Positions 4,939 through 40,409 of a DNA stretch of 40,409 bases are shown here, one piece after another (position 1 is the stretch's first letter; each line of letters begins with the position of its first letter). The stretch comes from Nitrospirae bacterium CG1_02_44_142 (GTDB taxonomy: Bacteria; Nitrospirota; Thermodesulfovibrionia; Thermodesulfovibrionales; UBA1546), in assembly GCA_001871685.1 (NCBI GenBank), contig MNVK01000096.1:1-40409 (forward strand), given 5' to 3'. Made by a program: the position numbers and the translations under genes. The notes under the pieces are model-generated. The model made no database searches. It was not told the DNA's origin and saw nothing but the letters and a program-made list of their open reading frames with translations.

Positions 4939-6765
4939 TCACTCTACGGTTACACTTTTAGCCAGATTCCTGGGCTGGTCAACATCGCATCCTCTCAGCA
5001 CTCCTATATGATACGCAAGAAGCTGCAGTGGTATTGCCATCAAAATTGCCGACAGAAAAGAATTAGTCTCAGGCACAAAGATGCAATAATCAGAACGGCT
5101 GCATACCTCTTTGTTGCCCTCGTCAGTTACTGCTATAATCCTGCCCCCCCTGCTTCTTACTTCTTCTATATTAGATAGAACCTTCGCATAAAGTCTACCC
5201 CTCGGCGCTAAAAATACAGACGGAAGAGCCTCGTCAACAAGCGCTATCGGGCCATGTTTCATCTCTCCGGCAGGATAACCCTCCGCATGAATGTAAGATA
5301 TTTCCTTGAGCTTAAGCGCGCCTTCAAGCGCAATAGGATAATTTATACCCCTCCCCATATACAGAAAATCATCAGCCTTAAACAATTCCCTTGCTATACG
5401 TTCAATTGCATTGTCTGCCGCAAGAACCTTCTCAACCAGCGTTGGCAGAAAAAGGAGAGCCCTGAGCAATTCCATAGCTGAATCGCCGCGGACAGTCCCC
5501 TTAAGCCTGCCGAGTCCTATTGCAAAGAGATAAAGCCCTACTATCTGGGTAGTGAAGGCCTTTGTTGATGCAACGCCTATCTCAGGGCCTGAATGCGTAT
5601 AGAACACGGCATCCGCCTCTCTTGATGCAGTGCTGCCCACAACATTGCATATGCTCAAGGTCTTTGCGCCGAGCCGCTTTGCCTCCCTCTGGGCAGCAAG
5701 CGTATCTGCCGTTTCCCCCGACTGCGTTATAGCTATCAGAAGGCTGTCCTGCCCCAGCACCGGGTTTCTGTATCTGAATTCTGATGCTATATCCACATCC
5801 ACCGGAACCCTTGCCAACTCTTCTATCATATATTTCCCGACCAGGGCGGCATGCCATGACGTGCCGCAGGCCACAATAAAAATTCTTTGCGCCTTTTTCA
5901 GGTCTTCCTCTTTTATGCCAAACTCATCCATATTCACTTGACCGCTTTCCGGATAAAACCTTCCCCTCAGAGTATCTGCTATTGCCCTGGGCTGTTCATA
6001 TATCTCTTTAAGCATAAAATGCTTGTAGCCGCCTTTTTCAGCCATGGCCGGGCTCCATGAAACTGACACAACTTCTTTCTGAACAGGCGCGCCGTCAAGG
6101 GTTGTCACAACCACGCCGTCGCCTGTCATAACAACCATCTCTCCATCATCAAGAAATATCACATCTCTTGAATAGCTGAGGAAGGCAGGCACATCAGACG
6201 CCAGGAAAAATTCTCCGCCGCCCAGGCCGACAACCAGAGGACTGTCTTTTTTCACGCCAACAATCTTGCCGCGTTCTTTTTCATTCATTACTGCAAGGGC
6301 GTATGCCCCCTTGACCTCCTTAAGCGCTTGTCTGACAGCATCTTCCAGAGGATAATCCGCGGCATATTTTTCTGTCAGATGGCATAGGACCTCTGTGTCG
6401 GTCTCTGATGTAAACTTATATCCCTCATCAATCAGTTTCTTTTTAAGCGGGAGATAATTTTCTATTATCCCGTTGTGCACAATTACTATCCCGTTTGACC
6501 TGTGAGGATGGGCATTTTCTTCTGACGGCCTTCCGTGAGTCGCCCATCTTGTGTGCCCTATGGCGGTAGAGCTGAAGGGTTTGTCAGAGTCTATAATCGC
6601 AGACAGGTTTTTAATCTTTCCTGTGCACTTCCTTATCTCTATGCCTTTTTCATTAAAAAATGCGATTCCCGCAGAATCATACCCCCTGTATTCAAGGCGC
6701 TTGAGCCCTTCAAGTATTATTGAAACCGCATTATTTTTGCCTGTATAACCTATTATTCCGCACAT
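4939..6765 (-). CDS. glmS: Glutamine--fructose-6-phosphate aminotransferase
   Basis: Start trimmed to 'MCGIIGY' because the N-terminal nucleophile Cys must follow the initiator Met. Two SIS domains are present, with the C-terminal 'DQPRNLAKSVTVE'. The 10 extra N-terminal codons in the track ORF are read out of a heptamer repeat. Confidence 0.95.
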   Translation of the reverse strand: MCGIIGYTGKNNAVSIILEGLKRLEYRGYDSAGIAFFNEKGIEIRKCTGKIKNLSAIIDSDKPFSSTAIGHTRWATHGRPSEENAHPHRSNGIVIVHNGIIENYLPLKKKLIDEGYKFTSETDTEVLCHLTEKYAADYPLEDAVRQALKEVKGAYALAVMNEKERGKIVGVKKDSPLVVGLGGGEFFLASDVPAFLSYSRDVIFLDDGEMVVMTGDGVVVTTLDGAPVQKEVVSVSWSPAMAEKGGYKHFMLKEIYEQPRAIADTLRGRFYPESGQVNMDEFGIKEEDLKKAQRIFIVACGTSWHAALVGKYMIEELARVPVDVDIASEFRYRNPVLGQDSLLIAITQSGETADTLAAQREAKRLGAKTLSICNVVGSTASREADAVFYTHSGPEIGVASTKAFTTQIVGLYLFAIGLGRLKGTVRGDSAMELLRALLFLPTLVEKVLAADNAIERIARELFKADDFLYMGRGINYPIALEGALKLKEISYIHAEGYPAGEMKHGPIALVDEALPSVFLAPRGRLYAKVLSNIEEVRSRGGRIIAVTDEGNKEVCSRSDYCIFVPETNSFLSAILMAIPLQLLAYHIGVLRGCDVDQPRNLAKSVTVE

Positions 6766-6791: not shown

Positions 6792-6838
6792 ACAACCCCT
6801 TTTATTCCCCCTTTGTTAAGGGGGATTGAGGGGGTTGT
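6792..6838. repeat. Nested C-run/G-run double-hairpin element, copy A (degenerate, intergenic glmU/glmS)
   Basis: ACAACCCC-TTTTATT-CCCCC-TTTGTTAA-GGGGG-ATTGA-GGGGGTTGT. The inner and outer C/G runs can both pair. Confidence 0.75.
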
Positions 6839-6876: not shown

Positions 6877-8352
6877 CTATTTGTTTCCTTTCTTTTTAAC
6901 TTTGAATTTTGAACTTTGAATTTTGAATTTTTTTCGTGCCCATCCCTCTATGTTCTTTTGCTCTACCCTGCTCACTGAAAGCGACATGGCAGGAACGCAC
7001 TTGGTAATGGTAGAGCCTGCGCCTATGTATGCGCCTCTGCCAACTCTTACAGGCGCAATTAGCTGAGTGTCGCTGCCTATAAAAGCGCCGTCTTCTATTG
7101 TTGTCCTGCTCTTCTTTTTGCCGTCATAATTGCATGTTATTGTGCCTGCCCCGATATTGACGCCCTTTCCTATAGAGGCGTTACCGAGGTAACTGAGATG
7201 AGACGCCTTGGTCCCGCCGCCGAGCACAGATTTTTTGACTTCAACAAAATTCCCTATCTTTGCCTCGGAGCCGATATCGCATCCGGGCCTGATATGGGCA
7301 AAAGGCCCAACCACTGCTTTAGCCCGAATAACAGAACCCTCTATCACAGTAGAGTCCTTCACTACAACCCCATCCTTGATAACGCTGTCAACAATGCGCA
7401 CATTCGGATATATAGTGCATCCTCTGCCTATTTCGGTCCTGCCTTCAAGACAGACGTCAGGATAAATAGTTGTATTATTTCCTATAACAACGCTGTCTGA
7501 GATAAAGACTGAATCGTGGTCAAAAAATATAACACCCTTTTTAATCCAGGCGTCAGCCAGTCTCTCCCTGAATATTTTCCGCGCCTTCATCAGTTCAGGT
7601 ATTGTATTAACTCCCATCATCTCATCCTCAGAACCTATGCAGTAGGCATTTATTTTATAGCCCTTGTTTCCGGCGATGCCGATAATATCTGTAAGGTAAT
7701 ACTCACCCTTTGCAGCATTCAGGGGAATTTCTTTAAGCAGCGCTAAGGCTCCGGATTTTATAGCATATACTCCGCTGTTAACCTCATTGATTTTTCTCTG
7801 AGCCTCTGTTGCATCCTTATCCTCTACAATTGAGTTAATACGGCTGTTTCTGTCCCTTAATATTCTTCCGTATGAAGCAGGATTTGCCGCAGCAAATGAG
7901 ATAAGAGAAATATCATTCTTCCCTCTGAGGTGCAAACTGAGAAATTTCTTCAATGTCTCTGATGTAATGAGCGGGACGTCTCCGTTTAATACGAGTATCG
8001 TGCCTATGAAATCTTTCAGTCCGCCTAAGGCGGATTTTGCCCTTACAAGCGCATCGCCTGTCCCATTGGGTTTTTTCTGTATAACAAACGAAAGGCTGCT
8101 CTGTTTCCCTTTAGTAATCCCCTCTCGCCCCCCTTTAATAAAGGGGGGATGGGGAGATTTATTAATAGCATCTTTTATTTCCCCGTAATTCTTTCCAACT
8201 ACAATTACGATTTTTGACGGCTTAAGCCCTGATGCGGAATCAATTACACACTGCAGCATAGGTTTATCAAAAATTCCATGCAGAACCTTCGGCAAGGGAG
8301 AATTCATCCTCTCGCCCCGTCCTGCCGCCAGGATAACCACTGCAAGTTTCAT
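6877..8352 (-). CDS. glmU: Bifunctional UDP-N-acetylglucosamine pyrophosphorylase / glucosamine-1-phosphate N-acetyltransferase
   Basis: 'VILAAGRGERM', 'PKVLH' and 'NGTGDA' mark the nucleotidyltransferase domain, followed by long left-handed beta-helix hexapeptide repeats. The ORF carries an in-frame repeat insertion (8118-8155) and a repeat-encoded C-terminal tail (6900-6934). Confidence 0.9.
   Translation of the reverse strand: MKLAVVILAAGRGERMNSPLPKVLHGIFDKPMLQCVIDSASGLKPSKIVIVVGKNYGEIKDAINKSPHPPFIKGGREGITKGKQSSLSFVIQKKPNGTGDALVRAKSALGGLKDFIGTILVLNGDVPLITSETLKKFLSLHLRGKNDISLISFAAANPASYGRILRDRNSRINSIVEDKDATEAQRKINEVNSGVYAIKSGALALLKEIPLNAAKGEYYLTDIIGIAGNKGYKINAYCIGSEDEMMGVNTIPELMKARKIFRERLADAWIKKGVIFFDHDSVFISDSVVIGNNTTIYPDVCLEGRTEIGRGCTIYPNVRIVDSVIKDGVVVKDSTVIEGSVIRAKAVVGPFAHIRPGCDIGSEAKIGNFVEVKKSVLGGGTKASHLSYLGNASIGKGVNIGAGTITCNYDGKKKSRTTIEDGAFIGSDTQLIAPVRVGRGAYIGAGSTITKCVPAMSLSVSRVEQKNIEGWARKKFKIQSSKFKVKKKGNK
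6900..6934. repeat. Tandem TTGAAnT words (about 4.5 units) forming the 3' end of glmU
   Basis: CTTTGAATTTTGAACTTTGAATTTTGAATTTTTTT. Read on the minus strand it gives KKFKIQSSKFKV. A related word pair (TTCAAATTCAAAT) is at about 31786-31798. Confidence 0.6.
8118..8155. repeat. Nested C-run/G-run double-hairpin element, copy B (inside the glmU CDS, in-frame)
   Basis: TCCCC-TCTCG-CCCCCC-TTTAATAAA-GGGGGG-AT-GGGGA. It translates on the minus strand as SPHPPFIKGGREG. Confidence 0.8.
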
Positions 8353-8966: not shown

Positions 8967-9037
8967 ATTGTTATTTATAATAACGCCGCAGGCATTGATA
9001 TTGCAAGAGCCTACATGGTGCATAACACAGGATTCAA

Positions 9038-9080
9038 CCCCCCTCTATCCCCCCTTAGTAAGGGGGGAATTAAAGGGGGG
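9038..9080. repeat. Nested C6/G6 double-hairpin element, copy C (archetype, intergenic)
   Basis: CCCCCC-TCTAT-CCCCCC-TTAGTAA-GGGGGG-AATTAAA-GGGGGG. Confidence 0.85.
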
Positions 9081-9098
9081 TATCGTGCATCGTGCATC
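9081..9098. repeat. Heptamer word repeat ATCGTGC x2 abutting copy C
   Basis: TATCGTGCATCGTGCATC. The same word family occurs at 25497-25524 and 37314-37346. Confidence 0.6.
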
Positions 9099-13195: not shown

Positions 13196-13579
13196 TTATT
13201 CTTCTAAATATTTTTGTGGCGTCAGTATCTTAAGGTCAAAAGGCAAATTCTTTATATCCAGAATATCTTTATCGCCGGTTATAAGAATCTTTGCTCTTGC
13301 TGTATGGCAACATTCAAGAAGCATATTATCGTCGGTATCTCTACAGAGTGATAATTTTACAGATGGATAGACAATTCTTGTGTTTGCAACAAAAGAGGCT
13401 ATTCCGGAAATTAACGCCTTTAACTGGATATGGCTTATCTTCCCCTCGGTTTCAAGTTCCAACGGGGTATCACGATACTCTTCAAGAAGGGCTGGGGATA
13501 CATATATGTCTGCCTCTTTAAATGCTTTTCTGACAGTTTTCTCAGGCACACCGCCAAAGGCAAAGGCAGAAACAAGCAC
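13196..13579 (-). CDS. PIN-domain toxin (TIGR00305-like PIN family)
   Basis: '..LVSAFAFGG.P' and 'ITGDKDIL' are characteristic. The GTG start at 13579 omits the in-frame upstream 'KIVIDTG' strand (see findings). Confidence 0.7.
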   Translation of the reverse strand: MLVSAFAFGGVPEKTVRKAFKEADIYVSPALLEEYRDTPLELETEGKISHIQLKALISGIASFVANTRIVYPSVKLSLCRDTDDNMLLECCHTARAKILITGDKDILDIKNLPFDLKILTPQKYLEE

Positions 13580-13598
13580 GCCTGTATCAATAACTATC

Positions 13599-13787
13599 TT
13601 ACTTCTTTTTTCCGTAGATTCTTCTCCTCACAGTTTTAGCTGCTTTATCAATGTCTTTCATTGTCAATGTGGTCTTTTTAAATGCCTCGCCTGCAACTTT
13701 GAAGGCAGCGTTAAGCCTGTCCTGAGGAGAAAGCGCAGAGAGGATAAAATCTTCAGGATTTATTTTTTTTGCTGTAGCAGTGCCCAT
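13599..13787 (-). CDS. Putative cognate antitoxin of the PIN toxin (family not recognised)
   Basis: 62-aa basic ORF immediately upstream of, and overlapping, the PIN reading frame. Strong RBS GAGGGGGTG. Confidence 0.4.
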   Translation of the reverse strand: MGTATAKKINPEDFILSALSPQDRLNAAFKVAGEAFKKTTLTMKDIDKAAKTVRRRIYGKKK

Positions 13788-13958
13788 TTAAACCACCCCC
13801 TCACTTTTATTTCTATATTCTATAATATCACAGTCTATGCTTTTTCTAATCTTCCAACCCAATCTCCGCCCTCTGCACTTCAGATAATCTGCCTGTTCCG
13901 CTTTTTGTGAGGTTTTGGTCAACGAGGCACACGGAGGGCTGTGGTATCATAAAATTAC

Positions 13959-14303
13959 TTACTGCAAGTCTAAAAATCTCTTCAATGCATTTTCCATAGA
14001 GAACAGATCATTAGAAGAAAGGCTGCCTAATTTTTTTAAGACCAGTTGTTGTTCAATAGTTGAAATGGCCGGTTTAATAGCCGATGGTTTTAACAGGCCG
14101 GCAACCTGCCAATCCATTATTAAACATTCTCCTATTCCAATAGTTTTATCTGTCCGACTTGTAATCGCCATAATGACAATATCAGAAGACACATTGTTGT
14201 AGAGATTGGAACTAACAATTACAGATGGACGTTTCTTAGTTGCGATTTGATTACTGAACGGAAATGGGACGAGAATAATATCCCCTCTTTTATAAGCTGT
14301 CAT
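13959..14303 (-). CDS. MazF/PemK-family endoribonuclease toxin
   Basis: Start trimmed to 'MTAYKRGDIILVPFPFS....KKRPSVIVS' (PemK signature). It overlaps the upstream antitoxin by 14 nt. Confidence 0.8.
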   Translation of the reverse strand: MTAYKRGDIILVPFPFSNQIATKKRPSVIVSSNLYNNVSSDIVIMAITSRTDKTIGIGECLIMDWQVAGLLKPSAIKPAISTIEQQLVLKKLGSLSSNDLFSMENALKRFLDLQ

Positions 14304-14487
14304 AGACAGCATCCTCTTTGTTGTCCCAAATCTTCTGGAATGATGCGGTGGACAGTTCTTGAGAGGCACTTACAAGCAGAGTTTTTTCCTTTTTATTTTC
14401 TAAAAATTGTATAAAGTCAAGAACCTCTGCAAGAAGATTTTCAGGAAGCCTATCTATTTCATTTCTAATTATTTCTTTAACTGACAT
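14290..14487 (-). CDS. DUF2281-like antitoxin (MazE-position partner)
   Basis: 65 aa with 'IDRLPENLLAEVLDFIQFLENK'. The same N-terminal motif occurs in the antitoxin at 645-866. Confidence 0.7.
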   Translation of the reverse strand: MSVKEIIRNEIDRLPENLLAEVLDFIQFLENKKEKTLLVSASQELSTASFQKIWDNKEDAVYDSL

Positions 14488-14729: not shown

Positions 14730-14810
14730 ATAGGGATGTGTCCCTGATTAATTACTATAGGGATGTGTCCCTGATTAATTATTAAATATGGGAAGTGTCC
14801 CTCTACTATC
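14730..14810 (+). repeat. Iteron-like direct repeats: 25-nt unit x2 (27-bp period) plus a third diverged unit
   Basis: ATAGGGATGTGTCCCTGATTAATTA occurs at 14730-14754 and 14757-14781. TGGGAAGTGTCCCTCTACTATC follows at 14789-14810. Each unit contains the small palindrome GGGA-nnnn-TCCC. Confidence 0.8.
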
Positions 14811-14854: not shown

Positions 14855-17800
14855 TCACGCAAACAACTCCCCCTGTAATTTCTGCAAAATTTTGTTCTGC
14901 AATTTCTGGCTGGTGATGGAGGAGATGTGGTCGGAGATTATTCTGTCTATTTTTTCTTTAAGGGCTTTGAGTTCTGGAAGGATTTTTGAGATGTATAATT
15001 CGTCTTTTGGTATCTTTATTTCCTCAAGCCCTGACTCAAGCCAAACCTTTAAAAACTCTGCTTCTGCTTCACTTGAGCAGTCTATGTGGTCTTTACCAGA
15101 AAAAATACGCCAGCCAAAGAGTTCGTTTTTGATTTCTACCCCCCTCTTTCCCCCCTTGCTAAGGGGGGATGTAAGGGGGGCCAGATGAAAGAGCTTAACG
15201 GTTTTAAGGTTTTTCTGATTAAGGATTTTTTCTCTGTAGAAATGTCCAAGAAGTTTATCTCCAAGCTTATCTTTAATTGTCTTTGTTAAAAGTTCAACAT
15301 CAACACCCTCCGTTGTCTTTCCTTTTTTATCAACGCTTCTTGCCTTTTCTATCCTTGATTTCACAAGGTCAACAACTGCACGATAGACCTCAAGCTGTTC
15401 GTCATCGGTTAAACCAAGAATATCGCCCATGATTATTTTGTCCAGTTCACGGCGGTCAGGCTTGACTTTATCGAGAGAAACTTCATCAGATGAATAAGCC
15501 TTTAAATCTTCAAATATGGATTTTATTTCAGGAGAGGGATATTTTATAGCTAGTTTTTTGAGTTTTAACCGCCCATCCTTAGAGAAATTTTTTATAACTG
15601 GAGTTTTTTCAAAATCTGTGCCTTTTATATCAATAGGCCCTGTCCCACCGCCATAGGTTCTGCTGTAAAATTCTTTAAATAACATGCTCACTGTAGAAAG
15701 TAAAAAACAAAGCAATGGCAGAACATCACGCTTTCTTTTTGGTTTTATCTCCATAAAACTGCAATCAGCCTGAAACATATACTTATTTGAAATCACTAAT
15801 TGTCTATCTGTGTGAACTCTTGGATAAAAGATCGGCCACGTTTCTCTATATTCAAGTTCATACCATCTATTACGAGATGAACATGTTGACCTGTTATGAA
15901 AACCCTTCCTCTCCCCTTGTTTGATATAAGAGAGAACCTTTTTGCTTTTTAGTTTCTCTTTGTCTTTGTTTATGAAAAGAACAATCTTTGATAAATCTTC
16001 AGGAGATACAACAACCTTTTTTGCTTCCCTCGGGCTTACAAGCACTCTATTCGGCGCCCATTCATCTTTGTCATTTTTATGCATCCAGAATTCTTTTTCA
16101 ATTCCTCTCTCTTTTATTTCTTCTTCTGTCAGATAGAAAAACTCATTTACACCTGTTGTAAATCCTCTCCTGATATCCGCTATCTTTTTTAATGGCGCAA
16201 GTTTATCCTTACCCTTTTCAAGAATCTTAAAAAATATCTCCGGAGCCCTCAGATACTTGCCCCATTTTGAGCCTGTATATTTTCTTTCTTCTGTGTCAAA
16301 ACCTTCTTCCCACAGCTCGCTCTGTTTTTTGGGATAAATTCTTAATTCATCGTTCTGGTAAAAGTCATTGTGATAGAGAATTGTTTTAATAAGGTTTCCA
16401 ATGGCGTCAAGCCTTTGTTTCTGTTTTTCCCACATGTCGTGGGCAGGCGGGATAAAATGTCTTAAGGGTTTTAAGAGATATGCAAATCTGACCAGATTTT
16501 CATCTCTTTCTTTCTGATATTTGCACTTCTCAAGGATTATTATGCAGGTATTGATGTCAGCATCTTCAAACCAGCGTTCAACTTTGGATTCAATGATTGC
16601 AATGATTTTATAGTTCTTGAGAAATAGTTCTTGAAGCCCTTTCCCGTAATCCACATCCATCCACGAATTTGAGACAATAAAGCCGAAACGGCCGCCATCT
16701 TTCAGAAACTTTGTCCCATGCACAAAGAAATAGGCATGAATGCCAGCCCTCTTTGAGATATCTGCAAGCTTCCGCCCGCCATAAATAAGAGCTTTCTCGA
16801 TAAGATTTTTCTTGTAACCGGCTTTTTCAGTAATTTCGGCTATTTCTTCCTGCCTTGTGTAAGGCGGATTGCCTACGATGCAGTCAAACCACCGCGGATG
16901 AGTTATCTCTTTTTGCTCCGTGCCTAATGTTTTAGCCTTTAGTTTTCTCCATCTTTCAGTCAGCTCAACACCACCATCAGGTTTCACCAATAGATTGAAA
17001 AAGTCTTCCCGTGCAATGTTCGGATAATTTTTAATAACACCCAAGTCATTGATTGCAAGGTTAATGGTTGCAAGGTGAGCAGGGAATTTTGCTATATCCA
17101 CACCCCACAGGCTTTCAAGAATTTCCTGATGTGCAAGCCTGTTATTCATAAGTTTCTTGTGCTGATATGCCCTGACGAGAAATGTGCCTGCACCGCATGA
17201 GGGATCTATAACCTTGTCGTCTTCATGTTTCAGGCAGAACTTTAAGATCAGGTCAACAACATCTGGGCTTGTGAAATATTGCCCCAAAATATGGCGCTCT
17301 TCCTGAGGGATCAGCTTTTCAAATATTCTTCCGATAATGTCAAAGCCGATTTTTGAAAAATCATATTCCTTTATGATAGCTACAAGTCCTTTAATCTCTT
17401 CAACAACTTCTCTGCTATCGGGGAATGCTATCTGGTCAATAAAATCAGTGCTGTAAATAGTTTCGTAGTCAATGTTATCCGTTATATAATTGAAATACGT
17501 TTGTTGCAAGATTTTCTGAAGCTGTCCCCCTGCAGTTAAATCATCAGGGATGAGCAGTGAGGCAAGGTTTGTATACTTTGTTTTTAGAGCCTGATAAAAA
17601 AGCAGCTTATTTATGAGCAAATACGCTGTCTGCCGTGCTACCTTGTCGAAATCTTCTTCCTGAGCTGCAAAGCTCCACTGTTGTTCAATAAACCAGATTT
17701 TGAGTTTCTTGGCAAAGTCAGAATCTTTATGAAAACTATCTCTTATAATATTTCTATAAAAACGAGATAAGCGCAGATTCTTCACATGAAGCTTTAATAT

Positions 17801-18364
17801 TAAAAGCTCGTCAATAGGTAAAAGATGTTCCGGTTTTTTGCCGGTATGGATATCAATGAGCTCAAACAGGAATTTCTCAAGACCCTTGATTATCGCACTC
17901 TTGAATCTTGGTTCTTCAATATTGTTCAAGTCCTCTATTGTAGAAAGGTCATATATCCCTGCAATCTGGATTGACTCATCGGACTGTTTGTTAACTTCTT
18001 CCGTTTTATACAAAATAAGCTTCTGGAAGTTTGAGCATCCAAAATATTTGGCTTTTCTTTGCACTGCCTTTTCCCATGCTGGCTTTTTGAGTTCCTTAAA
18101 ATCAAATGGGTCAAAATAAGGCGGCTTAAGCTCAATAACGCATAGGGCATCGGTACTTTGAGGTGATTTATAAATGATGATATCAGGCTGTTTTCTGTCT
18201 GCGCCTACGGTTTCCTGTTCTGAAAAACCGATTGGTAAGGATTGCTCTTTGATTATCTGATTTATCCATTCAACAGCTTTTTGATTGGCGGTGCGCTCGG
18301 TCTTATTGCTTGAAGTATCATAAGGCGAAGATAATTTTATAGGCTTTCCTCTAATCTTAGACAT
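14855..18364 (-). CDS. Type IIG-like restriction-modification enzyme (N-terminal PD-(D/E)xK nuclease + gamma-class N6-adenine DNA methyltransferase + target-recognition domain)
   Basis: 1169 aa. The N-terminus 'QPDIIIY...CVIELKPP...CSNFQKLILY' resembles the HSDR_N/PD-ExK motif. MTase motif I is 'VIDPSCGAGTFLV' and motif IV is 'VGNPPYTRQEE'. An Eco57I/TaqI-type TRD motif 'RRGFTTGVNEFFYL' is present. The gene is visibly more A+T-rich than its neighbours and carries an in-frame repeat insertion at 15139-15180. Confidence 0.8.
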   Translation of the reverse strand: MSKIRGKPIKLSSPYDTSSNKTERTANQKAVEWINQIIKEQSLPIGFSEQETVGADRKQPDIIIYKSPQSTDALCVIELKPPYFDPFDFKELKKPAWEKAVQRKAKYFGCSNFQKLILYKTEEVNKQSDESIQIAGIYDLSTIEDLNNIEEPRFKSAIIKGLEKFLFELIDIHTGKKPEHLLPIDELLILKLHVKNLRLSRFYRNIIRDSFHKDSDFAKKLKIWFIEQQWSFAAQEEDFDKVARQTAYLLINKLLFYQALKTKYTNLASLLIPDDLTAGGQLQKILQQTYFNYITDNIDYETIYSTDFIDQIAFPDSREVVEEIKGLVAIIKEYDFSKIGFDIIGRIFEKLIPQEERHILGQYFTSPDVVDLILKFCLKHEDDKVIDPSCGAGTFLVRAYQHKKLMNNRLAHQEILESLWGVDIAKFPAHLATINLAINDLGVIKNYPNIAREDFFNLLVKPDGGVELTERWRKLKAKTLGTEQKEITHPRWFDCIVGNPPYTRQEEIAEITEKAGYKKNLIEKALIYGGRKLADISKRAGIHAYFFVHGTKFLKDGGRFGFIVSNSWMDVDYGKGLQELFLKNYKIIAIIESKVERWFEDADINTCIIILEKCKYQKERDENLVRFAYLLKPLRHFIPPAHDMWEKQKQRLDAIGNLIKTILYHNDFYQNDELRIYPKKQSELWEEGFDTEERKYTGSKWGKYLRAPEIFFKILEKGKDKLAPLKKIADIRRGFTTGVNEFFYLTEEEIKERGIEKEFWMHKNDKDEWAPNRVLVSPREAKKVVVSPEDLSKIVLFINKDKEKLKSKKVLSYIKQGERKGFHNRSTCSSRNRWYELEYRETWPIFYPRVHTDRQLVISNKYMFQADCSFMEIKPKRKRDVLPLLCFLLSTVSMLFKEFYSRTYGGGTGPIDIKGTDFEKTPVIKNFSKDGRLKLKKLAIKYPSPEIKSIFEDLKAYSSDEVSLDKVKPDRRELDKIIMGDILGLTDDEQLEVYRAVVDLVKSRIEKARSVDKKGKTTEGVDVELLTKTIKDKLGDKLLGHFYREKILNQKNLKTVKLFHLAPLTSPLSKGGKRGVEIKNELFGWRIFSGKDHIDCSSEAEAEFLKVWLESGLEEIKIPKDELYISKILPELKALKEKIDRIISDHISSITSQKLQNKILQKLQGELFA
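15139..15180. repeat. Nested C6/G6 double-hairpin element, copy D (inside the Type IIG CDS, exactly 42 nt)
   Basis: CCCCCC-TCTTT-CCCCCC-TTGCTAA-GGGGGG-ATGTAA-GGGGGG. The minus-strand reading across and flanking the element is LAPLTSPLSKGGKRGV. Confidence 0.85.
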
Positions 18365-18843: not shown

Positions 18844-19395
18844 CTAACGCGCTCTCTTGCGCCCGGATGCCCCGTATCTCGCCGTGCTTTCCCTGACCTC
18901 AAATCCTATTTTCCTTTTCTTCGGTTCCGGCGGTGTCATGAGTTGGCGGATTGCATCAAACACGACCTTGAACTGAGTGTCATATTTCTTTTCAATATCA
19001 TCAAGCCTTCGGGCAAGGTCTTTATTTGCGGCTATCATTTCTCGCAGTTTTACGAATGCCCGCATTATGGCAATGTTGACCTGAACTGCTCGCTCACTGT
19101 TGAGAACGCTTGAAAGCATTGCCACGCCCTGCTCAGTGAAGGCATAAGGAAAAGAGCCGCCAAAATACTTCTTATGTGGTATCACATTTTGTGATACCAG
19201 CCATTCGGCCTCGGAATCTTTCAGTTGGAACATGAAATCTTCAGGGAATCTGTCGATATTCCTTTTTACAGCTTGGTTTAATGCTCTTGTTTCTACCCCA
19301 TATAATTCTGCTAAATGTATGCTTAATATAATCTTCTGCCCGCGTATCAGATAGATTTTCTTCTCAACCACATCTTCTGGAATTAATTCTTTCAT
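18844..19395 (-). CDS. ORF6N (KilA-N-like) DNA-binding domain protein
   Basis: '[45 protein letters not shown]' and '[37 protein letters not shown]' are the classic ORF6N signature. The protein has a coiled-coil and a basic C-terminal tail. Confidence 0.8.
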
Positions 19396-24766: not shown

Positions 24767-25426
24767 ATGCTGAAGATAGGCGTCCTTGCATCGGGCCGCG
24801 GCTCTAACTTTCAGGCAATAATAGACGAGATAGAAAATAAAAATCTCAAAGCCTCAATAGAGATATTGATAACAGACAATCCATCCGCCTTTGCGATAGA
24901 ACGGGCTGAGAGGCATAACATAAACCACATGTTTATAAACCCCGAAGACTTCGCTGCAAAGGATGAATTCTTCAAAAAAATTGCAGACGAACTTAAATCA
25001 CGCGGCGTTGACCTCGTTATACTTGCAGGATTCATGAGAATTGTAAGAAAACCCCTGATAGACGCATTCCCCGATAGGATAATGAATATCCATCCCGCGC
25101 TGCTCCCTGCATTCCCGGGGATGCACGGACAGAGACAGGCGCTTGATTACGGCGTAAAGATTTCAGGATGCACAGTTCATTTTGTTGACGGGGGCATGGA
25201 TACAGGACCGGTTATCATTCAGGCGGCAGTCCCTGTGACGTCTGATGACACGGAAGACACGCTTTCCGAACGCATACTGAGTTTTGAGCACAAGATATAT
25301 CCTGAGGCAGTAAGGCTCTTTTCAGAGGGAAGGCTTGAGATAAAGGGCAGGAAGGTTGTGATAAAAAACCATTCCGCAGTCATATCAAATATTGTAAACC
25401 CGCCCATAGATGAAACAGATGCATGA
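24767..25426 (+). CDS. purN: Phosphoribosylglycinamide formyltransferase
   Basis: 'IGVLASGRGSNFQAII', 'NIHPALLPAF.G' and 'SGCTVHFVD.GMDTGPVI' are PurN signatures. Confidence 0.95.
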   Translation: MLKIGVLASGRGSNFQAIIDEIENKNLKASIEILITDNPSAFAIERAERHNINHMFINPEDFAAKDEFFKKIADELKSRGVDLVILAGFMRIVRKPLIDAFPDRIMNIHPALLPAFPGMHGQRQALDYGVKISGCTVHFVDGGMDTGPVIIQAAVPVTSDDTEDTLSERILSFEHKIYPEAVRLFSEGRLEIKGRKVVIKNHSAVISNIVNPPIDETDA

Positions 25427-25450
25427 TACAAGATGCAGGATGCAAGATTT
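25409..25450. repeat. Heptamer array GATGCAn x about 5 (left arm of the composite element around copy E)
   Basis: GATGCAT GATACAA GATGCAG GATGCAA GATTTAA. It contains the purN stop codon (25424-25426). Confidence 0.7.
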
Positions 25451-25452
25451 AA

Positions 25453-25495
25453 CCCCTCTCAGTCCCCCCTTATTAAGGGGGGAAGTAAAGGGGGG
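25453..25495. repeat. Nested C/G double-hairpin element, copy E (intergenic purN/rsmD)
   Basis: CCCC-TCTCAGT-CCCCCC-TTATTAA-GGGGGG-AAGTAAA-GGGGGG. Confidence 0.85.
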
Positions 25496-25496
25496 T

Positions 25497-25524
25497 ATCA
25501 TGTATCGTGCATCATGAATCATGA
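25497..25524. repeat. Heptamer array ATCnTGn x4 (right arm, inverted relative to the left arm)
   Basis: ATCATGT ATCGTGC ATCATGA ATCATGA. The reverse complement of the left arm reads ATCTTGC ATCCTGC ATCTTGT ATCATGC. It contains the rsmD start codon (25521). Confidence 0.7.
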
Positions 25525-37264: not shown

Positions 37265-37346
37265 CATGAATTTGATGCATGTTACACGATGCATGACTCA
37301 CAAAATATTTGACTTGCATCGTGAATCTTGCATCGTGCATCATGAT
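37265..37346. repeat. Inverted heptamer arrays (nTGnATC words) without a G/C core, intergenic icd / synthase gene
   Basis: The right arm is TTGCATC GTGAATC TTGCATC GTGCATC ATGATTT. The reverse complement of the left arm is GTGAGTC ATGCATC GTGTAAC ATGCATC. The central spacer is ACAAAATATTTGAC. Confidence 0.7.
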
Positions 37347-38582
37347 TTATGGATTCAACGTCAATATTTTTCTTGCAATGTCAGGATAATGCGCTATAAA
37401 TCTCAGCTCATCGTCAGTCATCGGCTTCTGCGTATGCAGGTTAGCATACTGGACCAGTTCCAGGACATTTCTCGCCTCACTGTCATCATGGAAGTGGATT
37501 CCAAGTTTGTCATAGACATGCCTGAAACCCTTAACCCCGCCGTATTCGCCTGTTGTTATAATCCTTCCTGTCTCAAGAAGTTCAGGTTCGCCCCTGCCGA
37601 CATCCTCAGGGTCATAAAGCTCGTAATTTCTCCTGTCTTTTAAGGCCCCATCTGCATGAATGCCTGACTCGTGTGCAAACGCATTTGAGCCCACTCCCGG
37701 TTGATTTATAGGTATTGGAAGATTAAAGGCATAGGATGCGTATTTTGCAATTTTCCAGGCATTTTTCAGGTCCACATGTTCGTCAAGATAAACCTTTCGG
37801 CTTAAACCGTGTGAAAATTTAAGGGCAAGGATGGTGGATACAAGGTCGCAGTTTCCGCAGCGCTCGCCATAACCGTTTATTGTTGTGTTTATATAGGCGT
37901 CAATACCGCTCTCTATAGAACCCTGCGCTCCAGCCACCGATACCGCCTCTGCCATGCCCAGGTCATTGTGGCAGTGCATCTCTATCGGGAACTTTGTTGC
38001 CAGCGCAAGCGCCTTTATCCTCTCATAGATTGTTATTGGGTCATCACAGCCGAGCGTATCGCAGTATCTGAACCTGTCTGCGCCTGCCTCCTTCCCTGCA
38101 ATCACAAACTCTATCAGCTTGTTAATCTCTGTCCTTGATGCATCTTCGGCATTGAGCCCTACAGTCTCCGCTCCTGATTCCTTTGCAAGCCTTACAGCCT
38201 CAATCGCTGTTTGCAGGATGTCCTTAAATGCCTTTCTGCCCTGGAATTTCCCCTGTATCATTATCTCCGATGTTGACATAGAGATGTTCAGATGTTTTAT
38301 CTCCGGACAGTTCTTAAATGTAAGCCTTATGTCTTCCGGGATTGCCCTGCACCAGCCCTCAAGATGAATCCGTTTAATCGCTCCTGCCTTAACAAGTTCA
38401 AGATTCCCGTTTATATAACTTACTTCATGTTTGAGCGTAGGGAAGCCTATCTCGCTCTGATACACTCCCATCTCATCAAGATAGATATTGAGCATCGTCT
38501 TGGAAAGTTTCGGCAGAAGTATCCTGGACGTCTGAACACCGTCTCTGTTTGTAACGTCAATAAGATAAACTTTATTTTTCAT
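37347..38582 (-). CDS. DRE-TIM (HMGL-like) homocitrate/2-isopropylmalate synthase-family enzyme; candidate Re-citrate synthase
   Basis: 'LIDVTNRDGVQT' is a variant of TLRDGEQ. 'HCHNDLGMA' and 'NGYGERCGN' are metal/substrate motifs. It lacks a LeuA regulatory domain and lies directly upstream of icd. Confidence 0.75.
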   Translation of the reverse strand: MKNKVYLIDVTNRDGVQTSRILLPKLSKTMLNIYLDEMGVYQSEIGFPTLKHEVSYINGNLELVKAGAIKRIHLEGWCRAIPEDIRLTFKNCPEIKHLNISMSTSEIMIQGKFQGRKAFKDILQTAIEAVRLAKESGAETVGLNAEDASRTEINKLIEFVIAGKEAGADRFRYCDTLGCDDPITIYERIKALALATKFPIEMHCHNDLGMAEAVSVAGAQGSIESGIDAYINTTINGYGERCGNCDLVSTILALKFSHGLSRKVYLDEHVDLKNAWKIAKYASYAFNLPIPINQPGVGSNAFAHESGIHADGALKDRRNYELYDPEDVGRGEPELLETGRIITTGEYGGVKGFRHVYDKLGIHFHDDSEARNVLELVQYANLHTQKPMTDDELRFIAHYPDIARKILTLNP

Positions 38583-39787: not shown

Positions 39788-40409
39788 ATGAACTTCAGCG
39801 GCATAAAAAAAATTCTTGTCATAAAACTCCGTCATATCGGCGATGTCCTCTTAAGCGTGCCTGTATTCAGGGCGTTAAGAGAAAATTTCCCGGAGGCGCA
39901 TATTGCCGCCCTCGTGAATTCGGGCACGGAAGAGGTCTTAGAGGCAAGCCCGTTTATTAATGAGATAATAGCCTTTGACCGAGGCATTAAGAAAATGAAT
40001 CCTGTACAGAGATACAGAAAAGAACTAGCATTCCTAAGAATGCTGCGGAAGAAAGGTTCTGATATGACAGTTGACCTCACAGGCGGCGACAGGGCTGCAA
40101 TAATATCCTTTGTCTCAGGCGCATCATACAGGCTCGGCCCTGACGTCAAAGAGGGTTTTTTAGGGAAAAGATATTTATATACTCACCTTGCAGTAAGAAA
40201 TAATAATCAGCGCACTAATCAACATATAGTCCTGCAAAACCTTGATATCATAAGCCGGTTCGGCGTCAAAACAGACAATCTCTCCGTGGATATATCTATC
40301 CCTGAAGACGCAAGGGTATTTGTTAAAAAGGTCTTTGAAAAAAACGGGATAAATAAAATAAAGACTACCCCCCTATGTCCCCCCTTAATAAGGGGGGAAT
40401 TTAAGGGGG
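39788..40409 (+). CDS. Glycosyltransferase family 9 (LPS heptosyltransferase-like), partial; runs off the right window edge
   Basis: Not in the ORF track because it is open-ended. The translation is MNFSGIKKILVIKLRHIGDVLLSVPVFRALRENFPEAHIAALVNSGTEEVL...; 'ILVI.L..IGDVLL..P..RAL...FP.A.I' is the GT9 N-terminus. The antisense track ORF at 39832-40149 is its shadow. The last 42 nt are repeat copy F, read in-frame. Confidence 0.8.
   Translation, partial: MNFSGIKKILVIKLRHIGDVLLSVPVFRALRENFPEAHIAALVNSGTEEVLEASPFINEIIAFDRGIKKMNPVQRYRKELAFLRMLRKKGSDMTVDLTGGDRAAIISFVSGASYRLGPDVKEGFLGKRYLYTHLAVRNNNQRTNQHIVLQNLDIISRFGVKTDNLSVDISIPEDARVFVKKVFEKNGINKIKTTPLCPPLIRGEFKG
40368..40409. repeat. Nested C6/G6 double-hairpin element, copy F (inside the GT9 CDS; truncated by the window end)
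   Basis: CCCCCC-TATGT-CCCCCC-TTAATAA-GGGGGG-AATTTAA-GGGGG. The plus-strand reading is (T)PLCPPLIRGEFKG. Confidence 0.85.

Follow-up and report, generated by a model that had tools for sequence, protein, structure and literature searches.

A dispersed hairpin-forming repeat, probably inserted in frame in a permissive loop of GlmU in an uncultured Nitrospirota bacterium

We analysed a stretch of 40,409 nucleotides (the window) from Nitrospirae bacterium CG1_02_44_142, in which glmU is found within the gene order sigma54-RR / yebC / DUF502 / glmU / glmS / uvrD, common to the window and its orthologues. GlmU, the bifunctional GlcNAc-1-P uridyltransferase / GlcN-1-P acetyltransferase, is a normally essential cell-wall enzyme and an antibacterial target. 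Pfam assigned an NTP_transferase domain (residues 5-233) and Hexapep repeats to the 491-aa open reading frame (ORF), a phmmer search against GlmU chains in the PDB gave E = 1e-99 over residues 5-473, and the top 37 Foldseek matches were all GlmU. The N-terminal nucleotidyltransferase domain, the C-terminal left-handed beta-helix hexapeptide domain and the full-length likeness to known structures mark the product as GlmU. In a 47-sequence alignment with the window protein as first row, the motif LAAGxGxRM, K22, Q92, the motif GTGDA, D125, N192, N249, R355, K373, H385, Y388, N408 and K414 are all retained, in columns that are invariant or nearly so (nearly invariant for G11, G13 and R15 of the first motif). 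We take the catalytic and substrate-binding roles of these residues to be those established in structural work on the E. coli and S. pneumoniae enzymes, with Q92 presumably the uracil-binding Gln.

The window protein carries an insert. In the phmmer alignment, the PDB chains are gapped by 18-20 residues opposite query residues ~64-85. DNA alignment with the syntenic orthologue L002/L003 reveals a clean extra segment of 57 nt at window positions ~8108-8164, which encodes NKSPHPPFIKGGREGITKG; its ends are uncertain by a few nucleotides, because the flanks of the insert are much diverged from the empty site. Within the segment lies an element that reads AAATCT-CCCC-AT-CCCCCC-TTTATTAAA-GGGGGG-CGAGA-GGGG-ATTAC on the gene strand. 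On the plus strand its core (8119-8154) reads CCCC-TCTCG-CCCCCC-TTTAATAAA-GGGGGG-AT-GGGG, with a fold energy of -24.3 kcal/mol on the gene strand (z = -2.4) and -26.2 kcal/mol on the plus strand. The core is translated as SPHPPFIKGGREG, in the context ...EIKDAINKSPHPPFIKGGREGITKGKQSSLSFVIQKKPNGTGDA... of the product, and accounts for 12 codons, or ~16 if the AAAT/ATTAC flanks are included. An earlier reading made from the sequence alone had estimated a loop of about 23 residues instead of about 6, 13 of them from the repeat, which comes close to the values measured here.

Repeat grouping gave six copies of the element in the window, four intergenic and two in frame within genes (Table 1). The core pattern has 12 matches, at six loci and on both strands, where shuffles predict 0.02 (a 600-fold enrichment); chance does not account for the repeat family. 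An element is ~45-50 nt long and consists of two C-runs and two G-runs, which form a nested hairpin. The copy in glmU belongs to a separate subfamily, type 2 (AAAT-C6-AT-C6-TTTATTAAA-G6-CGA-G6-ATTAC), with a 9-nt loop and an AT spacer, distinct from the four intergenic type-1 copies of the window. The sequence-only reading had described the glmU segment as one more copy of a dispersed hairpin repeat, lying in frame in the uridyltransferase domain; family and position stand. Four of the six reading frames of the type-2 element lack a stop codon (three of six for type 1) and the added length is divisible by three, so the element in glmU is translated as a loop.

Table 1. Features of the window that bear on the repeat and its copy in glmU
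Feature	Position	Strand	Evidence or description
glmU coding sequence, 491 aa	6877..8352	-	ORF list, Pfam, PDB, Foldseek, synteny, dN/dS 0.20-0.22
Divergent mosaic patch around the insert, aa 40-95	8068..8235	-	Segment-wise identities, DNA alignment
Segment without counterpart in the nearest insert-free orthologues, 57 nt = 19 codons	8108..8164	-	DNA and protein alignments
Type-2 element with flanking A/T inverted repeat	8114..8160	-	Comparison with free-standing copies
Nested hairpin core	8119..8154	.	Outer 4-bp and inner 6-bp (up to 9-bp) C:G stems
Type-1-like copy, glmU-glmS intergenic spacer	6796..6834	+	Fold -35 kcal/mol, z = -5.3
Type-1 copy between yebC and the DUF502 gene	9038..9080	+	Fold -35.6 kcal/mol, z = -4.8
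In-frame copy in the 1169-aa N6-adenine methyltransferase ORF 14855..18364 (-)	15139..15180	-	
Type-1 copy between a formyltransferase gene and an rsmD-like gene	25453..25495	+	
Type-1 copy cut by the window end	40368..40409	+	

The hairpin does not correspond to any known RNA family, as neither Rfam (at the gathering threshold) nor ARAGORN had a match in the window. A comparison of the free-standing copies defined no target-site duplication or terminal inverted repeat (TIR) beyond AAAT/ATTT, and mobility is therefore deduced from the distribution only. A 9-nt near-repeat (ATTAATAAA / ATTACTAAA) flanks the glmU copy and is absent around free-standing copies. Three other kinds of element were considered for the glmU insert and rejected: an intein or other self-splicing element, as the insert has only 19 residues and no domain; an intrinsic terminator, given its mid-gene position and the lack of a T-run; and CRISPR, as the window contains no regular repeat-spacer array.

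The insert is located between helix 56-65 and strand 87-91 of the uridyltransferase domain. In an AlphaFold model, proposed as a check in the sequence-only reading, residues 68-83 are coil with pLDDT <50 while the flanks are near 90; the inserted peptide is probably a Pro/Gly/Lys-rich, disordered surface loop. It ends ~6-8 residues before Q92, which is at the far end of that strand, and we infer that the insert is distant from the active site and that the peptide is neutral. With dN/dS at 0.20 between the two insert-bearing genes compared, the window glmU looks functional and under purifying selection, in line with the earlier suggestions that the catalytic residues are intact in an open frame and that the insertion is tolerated. 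P0001, identical to the window protein, represents 41 member sequences in ENA, and the same insert is borne by another metagenome-assembled genome (MAG; P0002/L004); the insert is therefore not an assembly artefact.

Free-standing type-2 copies are present in L011 (4509-4547), L033 (702-740), L105 (7551-7589) and L170, all flanked by AAAT ... ATT(T/A). The reverse complement of the L011 copy, CCCCCC-AT-CCCCCC-TTTATTAAA-GGGGGGG-CGA-GGGGGG-ATTACT, is nearly identical to the copy in glmU. Type-2 elements also occur in two viral contigs, and the type-2 core was found at 40 places in IMG/VR. A scan of the viral sequences with the full type-1 pattern, right arm included, gave no match; only the core patterns matched, and in many viral copies the outer run is missing from one of the two sides. 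For these high-GC contigs, the number of copies that fall in long open frames is uninformative and was left out of account. Related copies are present in a Deltaproteobacteria MAG as well as in viral contigs, one of which (L203) has clustered arrays in which the element alternates with a second hairpin. No specific account of repeats of this kind in Nitrospirota or Thermodesulfovibrio emerged from a literature search.

The second in-frame copy of the window is translated as APLTSPLSKGGKRGVE in the methyltransferase. This insert is present in six orthologue clusters and absent from ~40, and is as patchy as that in glmU. Together with the stop-free frames, this indicates that in-frame insertion is a general property of the repeat family.

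The GlmU loop was compared among orthologues, using an alignment of 60 homologues for presence or absence at the protein level. The DNA was mostly collected protein by protein, and contig scans with GlmU yielded, among the matches listed, ~10 Nitrospirota loci. The insert-free proteins P0003-P0010 (77-82% identical, the nearest at 82%, with the same synteny) lack exactly the 19 codons, so that without the repeat the longer loop is missing too; P0092, P0119 and P0089 are further insert-free relatives. In a distant Thermodesulfovibrionia clade (clade B) an element occupies the same loop in the same orientation, read in another frame (phase 2, NPPIPPLLKGG, against phase 0, KSPHPPFIKGG, in the window and L004), and has the hairpin loop TTTGCTAAA and the spacer TAAA. 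Some alleles are compound. L167 has a type-1 element sitting within the loop of its type-2 element. The nested type-1 copy of L085 has the lineage-specific spacer TCTATAT and loop TTACCAA of a local intergenic copy, and a second, truncated local copy has the loop TTACCAA too. In L086/L009, a 22-nt GC palindrome is nested in the left arm of the element; this palindrome is also free-standing at L005:1565, inside a C/G-run element.

An equally long loop encoded by unrelated DNA had been named in advance as evidence against an insertion. Such loops were found in part: P0012, P0055 and P0054 have a longer loop at the same site from unrelated DNA. Where the DNA was read (P0012 and P0055), these inserts are also hairpin-forming, which reinforces the insertion reading and indicates that the loop is generally permissive. 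Among the retrieved GlmU homologue clusters, all in-frame copies are in this loop, with the exception of P0046, where the copy is at the N-terminus. Comparison of these alleles suggests that the same GlmU loop has been struck more than once by elements.

The type-2 insert is old, since it is common to the window and L004 at dS 0.35, and it is retained over dS = 0.35 to 0.9. The surrounding sequence is mosaic. Window GlmU and its close relatives are 42-62% identical in aa 40-63 and 29-57% in aa 86-92, compared with 74-100% elsewhere. P0002 and P0004 are 93-97% identical except in aa 40-95 (58-60%). P0041 shares 97-100% of residues with P0119 in aa 96-470 and only 55-82% in aa 1-95, a region in which it is 96-100% identical to P0033. 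The mosaic alleles with and without the insert point to exchange by homologous recombination.

REP-type elements carry a 5' GT(A/G)G motif, which is absent from the present element. Like REPs and BIMEs, the element is a short imperfect palindrome in multiple copies, mostly between co-directional genes and without obvious target-site duplications, and the alternating arrays of the viral contig L203 resemble BIMEs. In contrast, two of the six copies in the 40-kb window are not extragenic and lie in frame in genes, whereas REPs, 14-40 nt long in E. coli, seldom overlap coding regions (PMC12306157). The window also encodes no transposase and no RAYT (IS200/IS605-like TnpA). Bacterial MITEs (Correia/NEMIS, ERIC, BOX, Anabaena MITEs) are small and non-autonomous, and their integration can produce in-frame fusions (PMC10969869); the element shares both properties. 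However, MITEs are usually longer and are defined by TIRs and target-site duplications derived from a parent IS, while the copies described here have in common only the 4-nt AAAT/ATTT inverted flank, with no consistent duplication around the free-standing ones.

By analogy, we regard the element as a new family of the kind known from the Rickettsia palindromic elements (RPEs), of which RPE-1 to RPE-10 have been described (Ogata et al., 2000 Science; 2002 Genome Res; as summarised in PMC10969869 and PMC1779305). Both are dispersed palindromes that occur between genes (four copies in the window) and in frame in unrelated housekeeping genes (two copies, with orthologues lacking the inserts), are translated and compatible with the protein fold, and include old inserts common to whole clades, as in the case of a 63-84-bp RPE-7-like insert in PheT of all Rickettsia (PMC1779305). 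RPEs have been reported in Wolbachia too. They differ in that RPEs are 100-150 bp long and reside in obligate intracellular Rickettsiales (PMC1779305), whereas the present element is ~45-50 nt (~47 nt in glmU, within the 57-nt insert), contains homopolymer C/G runs and is hosted by a free-living anaerobic Nitrospirota. Sequence kinship with RPEs is not expected; the likeness is one of kind, by description. The repeated strikes on one loop, the two reading frames and the nesting are observations on the present element.

We consider it probable that the glmU segment is a copy of a REP/MITE-like selfish repeat that was inserted in a permissive loop, was tolerated and spread by recombination. A copy of the short dispersed repeat would have landed in the DNA for the loop between helix 56-65 and strand 87-91 and, being in frame, would be translated as a Pro/Gly/Lys-rich, probably disordered loop that GlmU can tolerate. 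The insert, which has no demonstrated function for the enzyme, would persist because the loop is permissive and, once present, would be kept by the purifying selection that holds glmU open. Homologous recombination in the glmU sequence on either side may then carry insert-bearing alleles from one related lineage to another. We speculate that mobility depends on a trans-acting enzyme, or on template switching or gene conversion between copies.

Recurrent insertion at a hot spot would not be required if the element had entered glmU once, in an ancestor of the Thermodesulfovibrionia, with vertical descent, loss, slippage and recombination accounting for everything else. The two clades agree in site, orientation and architecture (AT spacer, 9-nt loop, ATTACT flank), alleles have demonstrably been exchanged by recombination, the glmU copy is the sole one in 12-17 kb in L004 and L007, and L168 has the right flank ACTAAA..GGACAGAG in common with the window. 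We nevertheless find a single insertion unlikely. The reading frames differ between the clades, a difference that could in principle arise from compensating slippage in the homopolymer runs; the window copy, with its TTTATTAAA loop and CGA spacer, is nearer to free-standing copies than to the clade-B copy (TTTGCTAAA, TAAA); the nested type-1 copies bear lineage-specific features of local intergenic copies; and the extra unrelated inserts at the site need further events under any history.

Less likely still is a domesticated insert, in which selection acts on an mRNA hairpin, as a pause or processing site in the yebC-DUF502-glmU-glmS operon, or on the peptide loop, as a surface for interaction or regulation, and the allele spreads for that reason. 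The insert is more conserved than the gene: between L007 and L087 it is identical at 51 of 52 nt (98%), compared with 77.6% over the whole gene (binomial P = 3e-5), and within clade B it is 89.5% identical in amino acids, compared with 77.6% for the rest of the protein. Such conservation could reflect constraint on the hairpin or the peptide instead of neutrality; gene conversion against other genomic copies can yield it as well, at the nucleotide level. The insert is kept in 23 of the 117 homologue clusters, across two clades, and there are nearly identical backgrounds in which an insert-bearing segment has taken the place of an insert-free one; on the other hand, close relatives do without it (P0003-P0010, P0092, P0119, P0089). 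Similar hairpins at two further junctions of the same operon in the window would fit a role in the mRNA, yet these are absent from L004, which has kept the glmU copy alone. As for the peptide, the two clades read the element in different frames, so no single peptide is conserved; the model shows a disordered coil, and the loop also takes nested copies and unrelated inserts, hairpin-forming where their DNA was read.

We give similarly little credence to a broader version, according to which the hairpins are an undescribed ultra-short mobile family that crosses phyla and homes into the loops and arms of its own members as well as a small number of permissive loops in proteins, with the GlmU insert being advantageous, as RNA or DNA hairpin or as Pro/Gly/Lys loop, domesticated and spread by recombination.

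It is very improbable that the window glmU is a decaying or redundant copy for which the insertion was a first step of pseudogenisation. The gene was viewed within the 40-kb window, so that a second, insert-free glmU may exist elsewhere, and its dN/dS exceeds that of the neighbouring glmS (0.07-0.10). However, dN/dS is much the same (0.22-0.26) in comparisons involving the insert-free L002, the ORF is full-length with all invariant residues kept, the gene has its conserved syntenic place next to glmS, and the insert has been retained over the range of dS given above. The loop length at this site does vary among GlmU homologues (P0028, P0031, P0054), but an ordinary lineage-specific extension that is repeat-like by chance, or an assembly artefact, is effectively refuted by the nearly base-for-base match to free-standing copies elsewhere, flanks included, by the enrichment of the pattern over shuffles and by the same insert in independent assemblies.

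Translated in-frame palindromic repeats have hitherto been considered mostly peculiar to Rickettsia and Wolbachia. The insertion of a REP/MITE-like repeat in glmU would place the same phenomenon in a free-living uncultured Nitrospirota, with a much smaller element and in an enzyme that is normally essential and serves as an antibacterial target. At this one loop, alleles that are empty, filled in two frames, nested, or occupied by other inserts (palindromic in some cases) form a natural series, which identifies a permissive site in GlmU and may serve as a test case for how selfish DNA makes new protein loops; the series also indicates that allelic recombination can spread inserts of this kind. 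For annotation, a PPxxKGGxxG peptide signature in proteins from MAGs should be read as repeat-derived.

The open reading frame that contains the hairpin core (see table) encodes GlmU. Pfam assigns an NTP_transferase domain (residues 5-233) and hexapeptide repeats to the product, and GlmU of S. pneumoniae, E. coli and M. tuberculosis match it with E = 1e-99 in a phmmer search of PDB sequences. In these alignments, query residues about 64-85 face a gap of 18-20 residues in the PDB GlmU chains. The sequence-only reading had placed a hairpin repeat in frame inside GlmU, which is confirmed by the location of the core within the reading frame and its membership of a repeat family. The gene-strand fold energy of the glmU copy is -24.3 kcal/mol (z = -2.4); the intergenic copies are more stable, at -30 to -36 kcal/mol and with z as low as -5.3.

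A database search returned 41 member sequences with a protein identical to the window GlmU (cluster P0001), a homologue cluster at 86% identity with the same insert (P0002), and eight clusters at 76-82% identity without it (P0003-P0010). The contigs of P0004 and P0002 share the gene order of the window (sigma54 response regulator, yebC, DUF502, glmU, glmS, uvrD), and both proteins are therefore orthologues of the window GlmU. At the DNA level, glmU of the window and of L004, the P0002 locus from a different MAG, have 57 nt (19 codons) more than the nearest syntenic orthologue, on L002 and L003. The glmU copy is the sole C/G-run element in 17 kb of L004, and no such element is present in L001-L003 over 18-21 kb. 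In P0003-P0010 the loop is missing together with the repeat, and the hairpin segment is best regarded as an insertion, as had been claimed.

The insert-bearing gene appears to be alive. Every invariant column of a 47-sequence alignment is preserved in window GlmU, and these columns cover most of its classic catalytic residues, bearing out the earlier statement that reading frame and catalytic residues are intact. Between the two insert-bearing genes (window and L004), dN/dS is 0.20. Comparisons involving the insert-free L002 give 0.22-0.26, and the neighbouring glmS 0.07-0.10. In an AlphaFold2 model built from the same alignment (mean pLDDT 77), insert residues 68-83 form a low-confidence coil (pLDDT < 50, ~90 on either side) between helix 56-65 and strand 87-91; the top Foldseek matches in the PDB are GlmU structures only. 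Judged from the order of secondary-structure elements and from established GlmU structures, the loop and Q92 would lie at opposite ends of the same strand; Q92 is the residue that we take from those structures to be the uracil-binding Gln. At 8020-8034, the window gene has 9 nt (3 codons) more than L004 and L002; they belong to a small palindrome, TCCGCCTAAGGCGGA (protein ...KSALGGLKD...), and could represent a further in-frame gain of a small hairpin.

The repeat search found six copies in the window, starting at 6796, 8119, 9038, 15139, 25453 and 40368, and the core pattern has 12 matches on both strands, versus 0.02 expected from shuffles. No Rfam family and no tRNA matched in the 40-kb window. 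We distinguish two subfamilies of the C-run/G-run hairpin. Type 1, A-C6-TCTAT-C6-TTAGTAA-G6-AATTAAA-G6, accounts for the four intergenic copies. Type 2 has a loop of 9 nt, AAAT...ATTAC flanks and, on one side, a spacer of 2 nt; it is represented by the glmU copy, which is of a distinct, older subfamily than the intergenic ones. Near base-for-base free-standing counterparts of the glmU copy occur on three loci (table) and two IMG/VR contigs. In IMG/VR, relaxed core patterns match at 40 places for type 2 and at 42 for type 1; many of the viral-contig copies lack the outer run on one side.

Repeat copies and associated features, with coordinates in the window where applicable
Feature	Coordinates	Strand	Context or sequence
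Hairpin core, from sequence	8119-8154	+	CCCC-TCTCG-CCCCCC-TTTAATAAA-GGGGGG-AT-GGGG
glmU ORF, 491 aa	6877..8352	-	contains hairpin; product includes ...EIKDAINKSPHPPFIKGGREGITKGKQSSLSFVIQKKPNGTGDA...
Intergenic type-1 copies			glmU/glmS, yebC/DUF502, formyltransferase/rsmD-like, window end
Second in-frame copy, type 1	15139-15180		in 1169-aa N6-adenine DNA methyltransferase ORF 14855..18364 (-); read as APLTSPLSKGGKRGVE
Heptamer-like repeat arms	9012-9037 / 9083-9098; 25419-25449 / 25497-25523		
L011			Thermodesulfovibrionia MAG; reverse complement AAAT-CCCCCC-AT-CCCCCC-TTTATTAAA-GGGGGGG-CGA-GGGGGG-ATTACT
L033			Deltaproteobacteria MAG; free-standing type-2 copy
L105			metagenome contig; free-standing type-2 copy

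All six window copies share the + strand orientation, as seen from their asymmetric spacers, and neighbouring genes run both ways; this hints at a tie to replication, not transcription (two-sided chance ~0.03). GATGCA / TGCATC(G/A) heptamer-like repeats form inverted arms around two type-1 copies, giving 87 nt of similarity between the 9-kb and 25-kb loci, and also stand alone near 37.3 kb (37304-37354). They may belong to a bigger composite element or form a repeat family of their own.

The methyltransferase insert is present at the same site in six orthologue clusters, in one of them degenerate, and absent from about forty at 62-81% identity. Since four of the six reading frames are stop-free in type 2 and three of six in type 1, an open frame after insertion is not improbable. 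Directly 3' of the methyltransferase stop lies a 27-nt tandem direct repeat (ATAGGGATGTGTCCCTGATTAATTACT; 14730-14783, two copies 96% identical). PIN-domain, PemK/MazF toxin and ORF6N-domain genes flank the methyltransferase (13196-14369, 18844-19395). This suggests a small defence or toxin-antitoxin island, with the PNP_UDP gene on one side and pmbA/tldD-lpxC on the other.

Among known systems, Rickettsia palindromic elements (RPEs) come closest; these repeats of 100-150 bp are abundant both between and within genes, often in frame (PMC1779305; review PMC10969869); PheT of all Rickettsia carries an old RPE-7-like insert (PMC1779305). In behaviour the present element is RPE-like, but it falls short of the 100-150-bp range and has a different host. 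It is best seen as a new family of the RPE kind, not an RPE, set apart by length and host. Small, palindromic and lying mainly between genes (four of the six window copies), with no consistent duplication seen around its free-standing copies, it also resembles REPs and BIMEs (REP-containing mosaics); however, REPs rarely overlap genes (PMC12306157), whereas this element also sits in frame within them. No gene for a RAYT (REP-associated transposase) is encoded within the 40-kb window. BIME-like organisation is seen in IMG/VR contig 3300035670_001258 (L203; ~54% G+C), where arrays of type-2-like cores, AAAT-C6-NN(N)-C6-TTTnnTAAA-G6/7, at 2240-2480 and 6080-6248 have a start-to-start spacing of 39-51 nt, some alternating with a second hairpin, GGCGGCGAAGCCGCC. 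Our literature search found no description of such repeats in Nitrospirota.

The GlmU loop is a permissive site that is used recurrently. With all variants counted, element-type inserts occupy it in 23 of 117 full-length homologue clusters, and among the retrieved clusters all in-frame GlmU copies lie in this loop save one, at the N-terminus of P0046 (568 aa; MAG locus L167). The ~40-residue extension of that protein, MKQIHNKETKRTKKIIPPNPPTPPFGKGGLRGILKGGRGDFQ (L167:6569-6700), holds one or two further C/G-run elements besides a nested pair in the loop, in which a type-1 element lies within the loop of a type-2 element (...PPLTPLYPPLVRGELKGGKEG...). On L085, the left half of the insert is replaced by a type-1 copy with a lineage-specific spacer, TCTATAT, and a loop, TTACCAA, both common to one intergenic copy on the same contig; a second, truncated intergenic copy shares the loop. 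Within glmU at L086:7458 and L009:1595, the left arm of the element contains a nested 22-nt GC palindrome, GCCCGACGGACGGCAGGCGGGC, which recurs free-standing in another genome (L005:1565), again within a C/G-run element. This points either to spread of the composite as a unit or to targeting of C/G-run elements by the palindrome. Two inserts at the loop site (GlmU residues about 60-85) are unrelated to the element and also hairpin-forming: a perfect 30-nt palindrome, AGTAGGGGCGTATTGCAATACGCCCCTACT, at L168:10180-10215, which occurs once in 20 kb, and a ~54-nt segment on L251.

In clade B, a distant Thermodesulfovibrionia clade (56-61% identity), NPPIPPLLKGGKGGLLR occupies the same GlmU position. 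The DNA of L007 and L087, AAT-CCCCCC-AT-CCCCCC-TTTGCTAAA-GGGGGG-TAAA-GGGGG-ATTACTCAG, has type-2 architecture in the orientation of the window copy. The reading phase is shifted by one nucleotide between clade B and the window copy (codon phase at the start of the inner G-run: 0 in window and L004, 2 in clade B), and the window copy is closer to free-standing copies, with their loop TTTATTAAA and CGA spacer, than to clade B. Because of this phase difference and the better match to free-standing copies, at least two independent insertions are the probable history; a single ancient insert, the alternative, would involve compensating slippage in its homopolymer runs. That the insert is functional and kept by selection is improbable; the main argument for such domestication is that the insert is more conserved than its surroundings (1 of 52 positions differs between L007 and L087, versus 22% gene-wide, binomial P = 3e-5; 89.5% identity among 11 canonical clade-B proteins, versus 77.6% for the rest), which may reflect hairpin constraint, homogenisation with other genomic copies or recent transfer.

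When the loop is masked, insert-free proteins in a neighbour-joining tree fall inside insert-bearing groups and vice versa. Much of this patchiness stems from mosaic alleles, since identities differ by segment: P0002 and P0004 are 93-97% identical except over aa 40-95 (58-60%), and P0041 matches P0119 at 97-100% over aa 96-470 and 55-82% over aa 1-95, where it is 96-100% identical to P0033. In several lineages (window 8068-8235, GlmU aa 40-95; P0041, P0119, P0033), the 50-95 residues surrounding the insert differ in ancestry from the rest of glmU. The dS grouping is (window,(L004,L002)), yet the insert is common to window and L004. The mosaics indicate homologous recombination between Thermodesulfovibrionia. 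The initial interpretation holds, refined in three respects: the subfamily, the recurrently used loop and allele exchange. From tree patchiness, segment identities and dS grouping, we infer that homologous recombination carries the insert-bearing segment from one related lineage to another; no new insertion or excision need be assumed to explain whether a particular genome has it.
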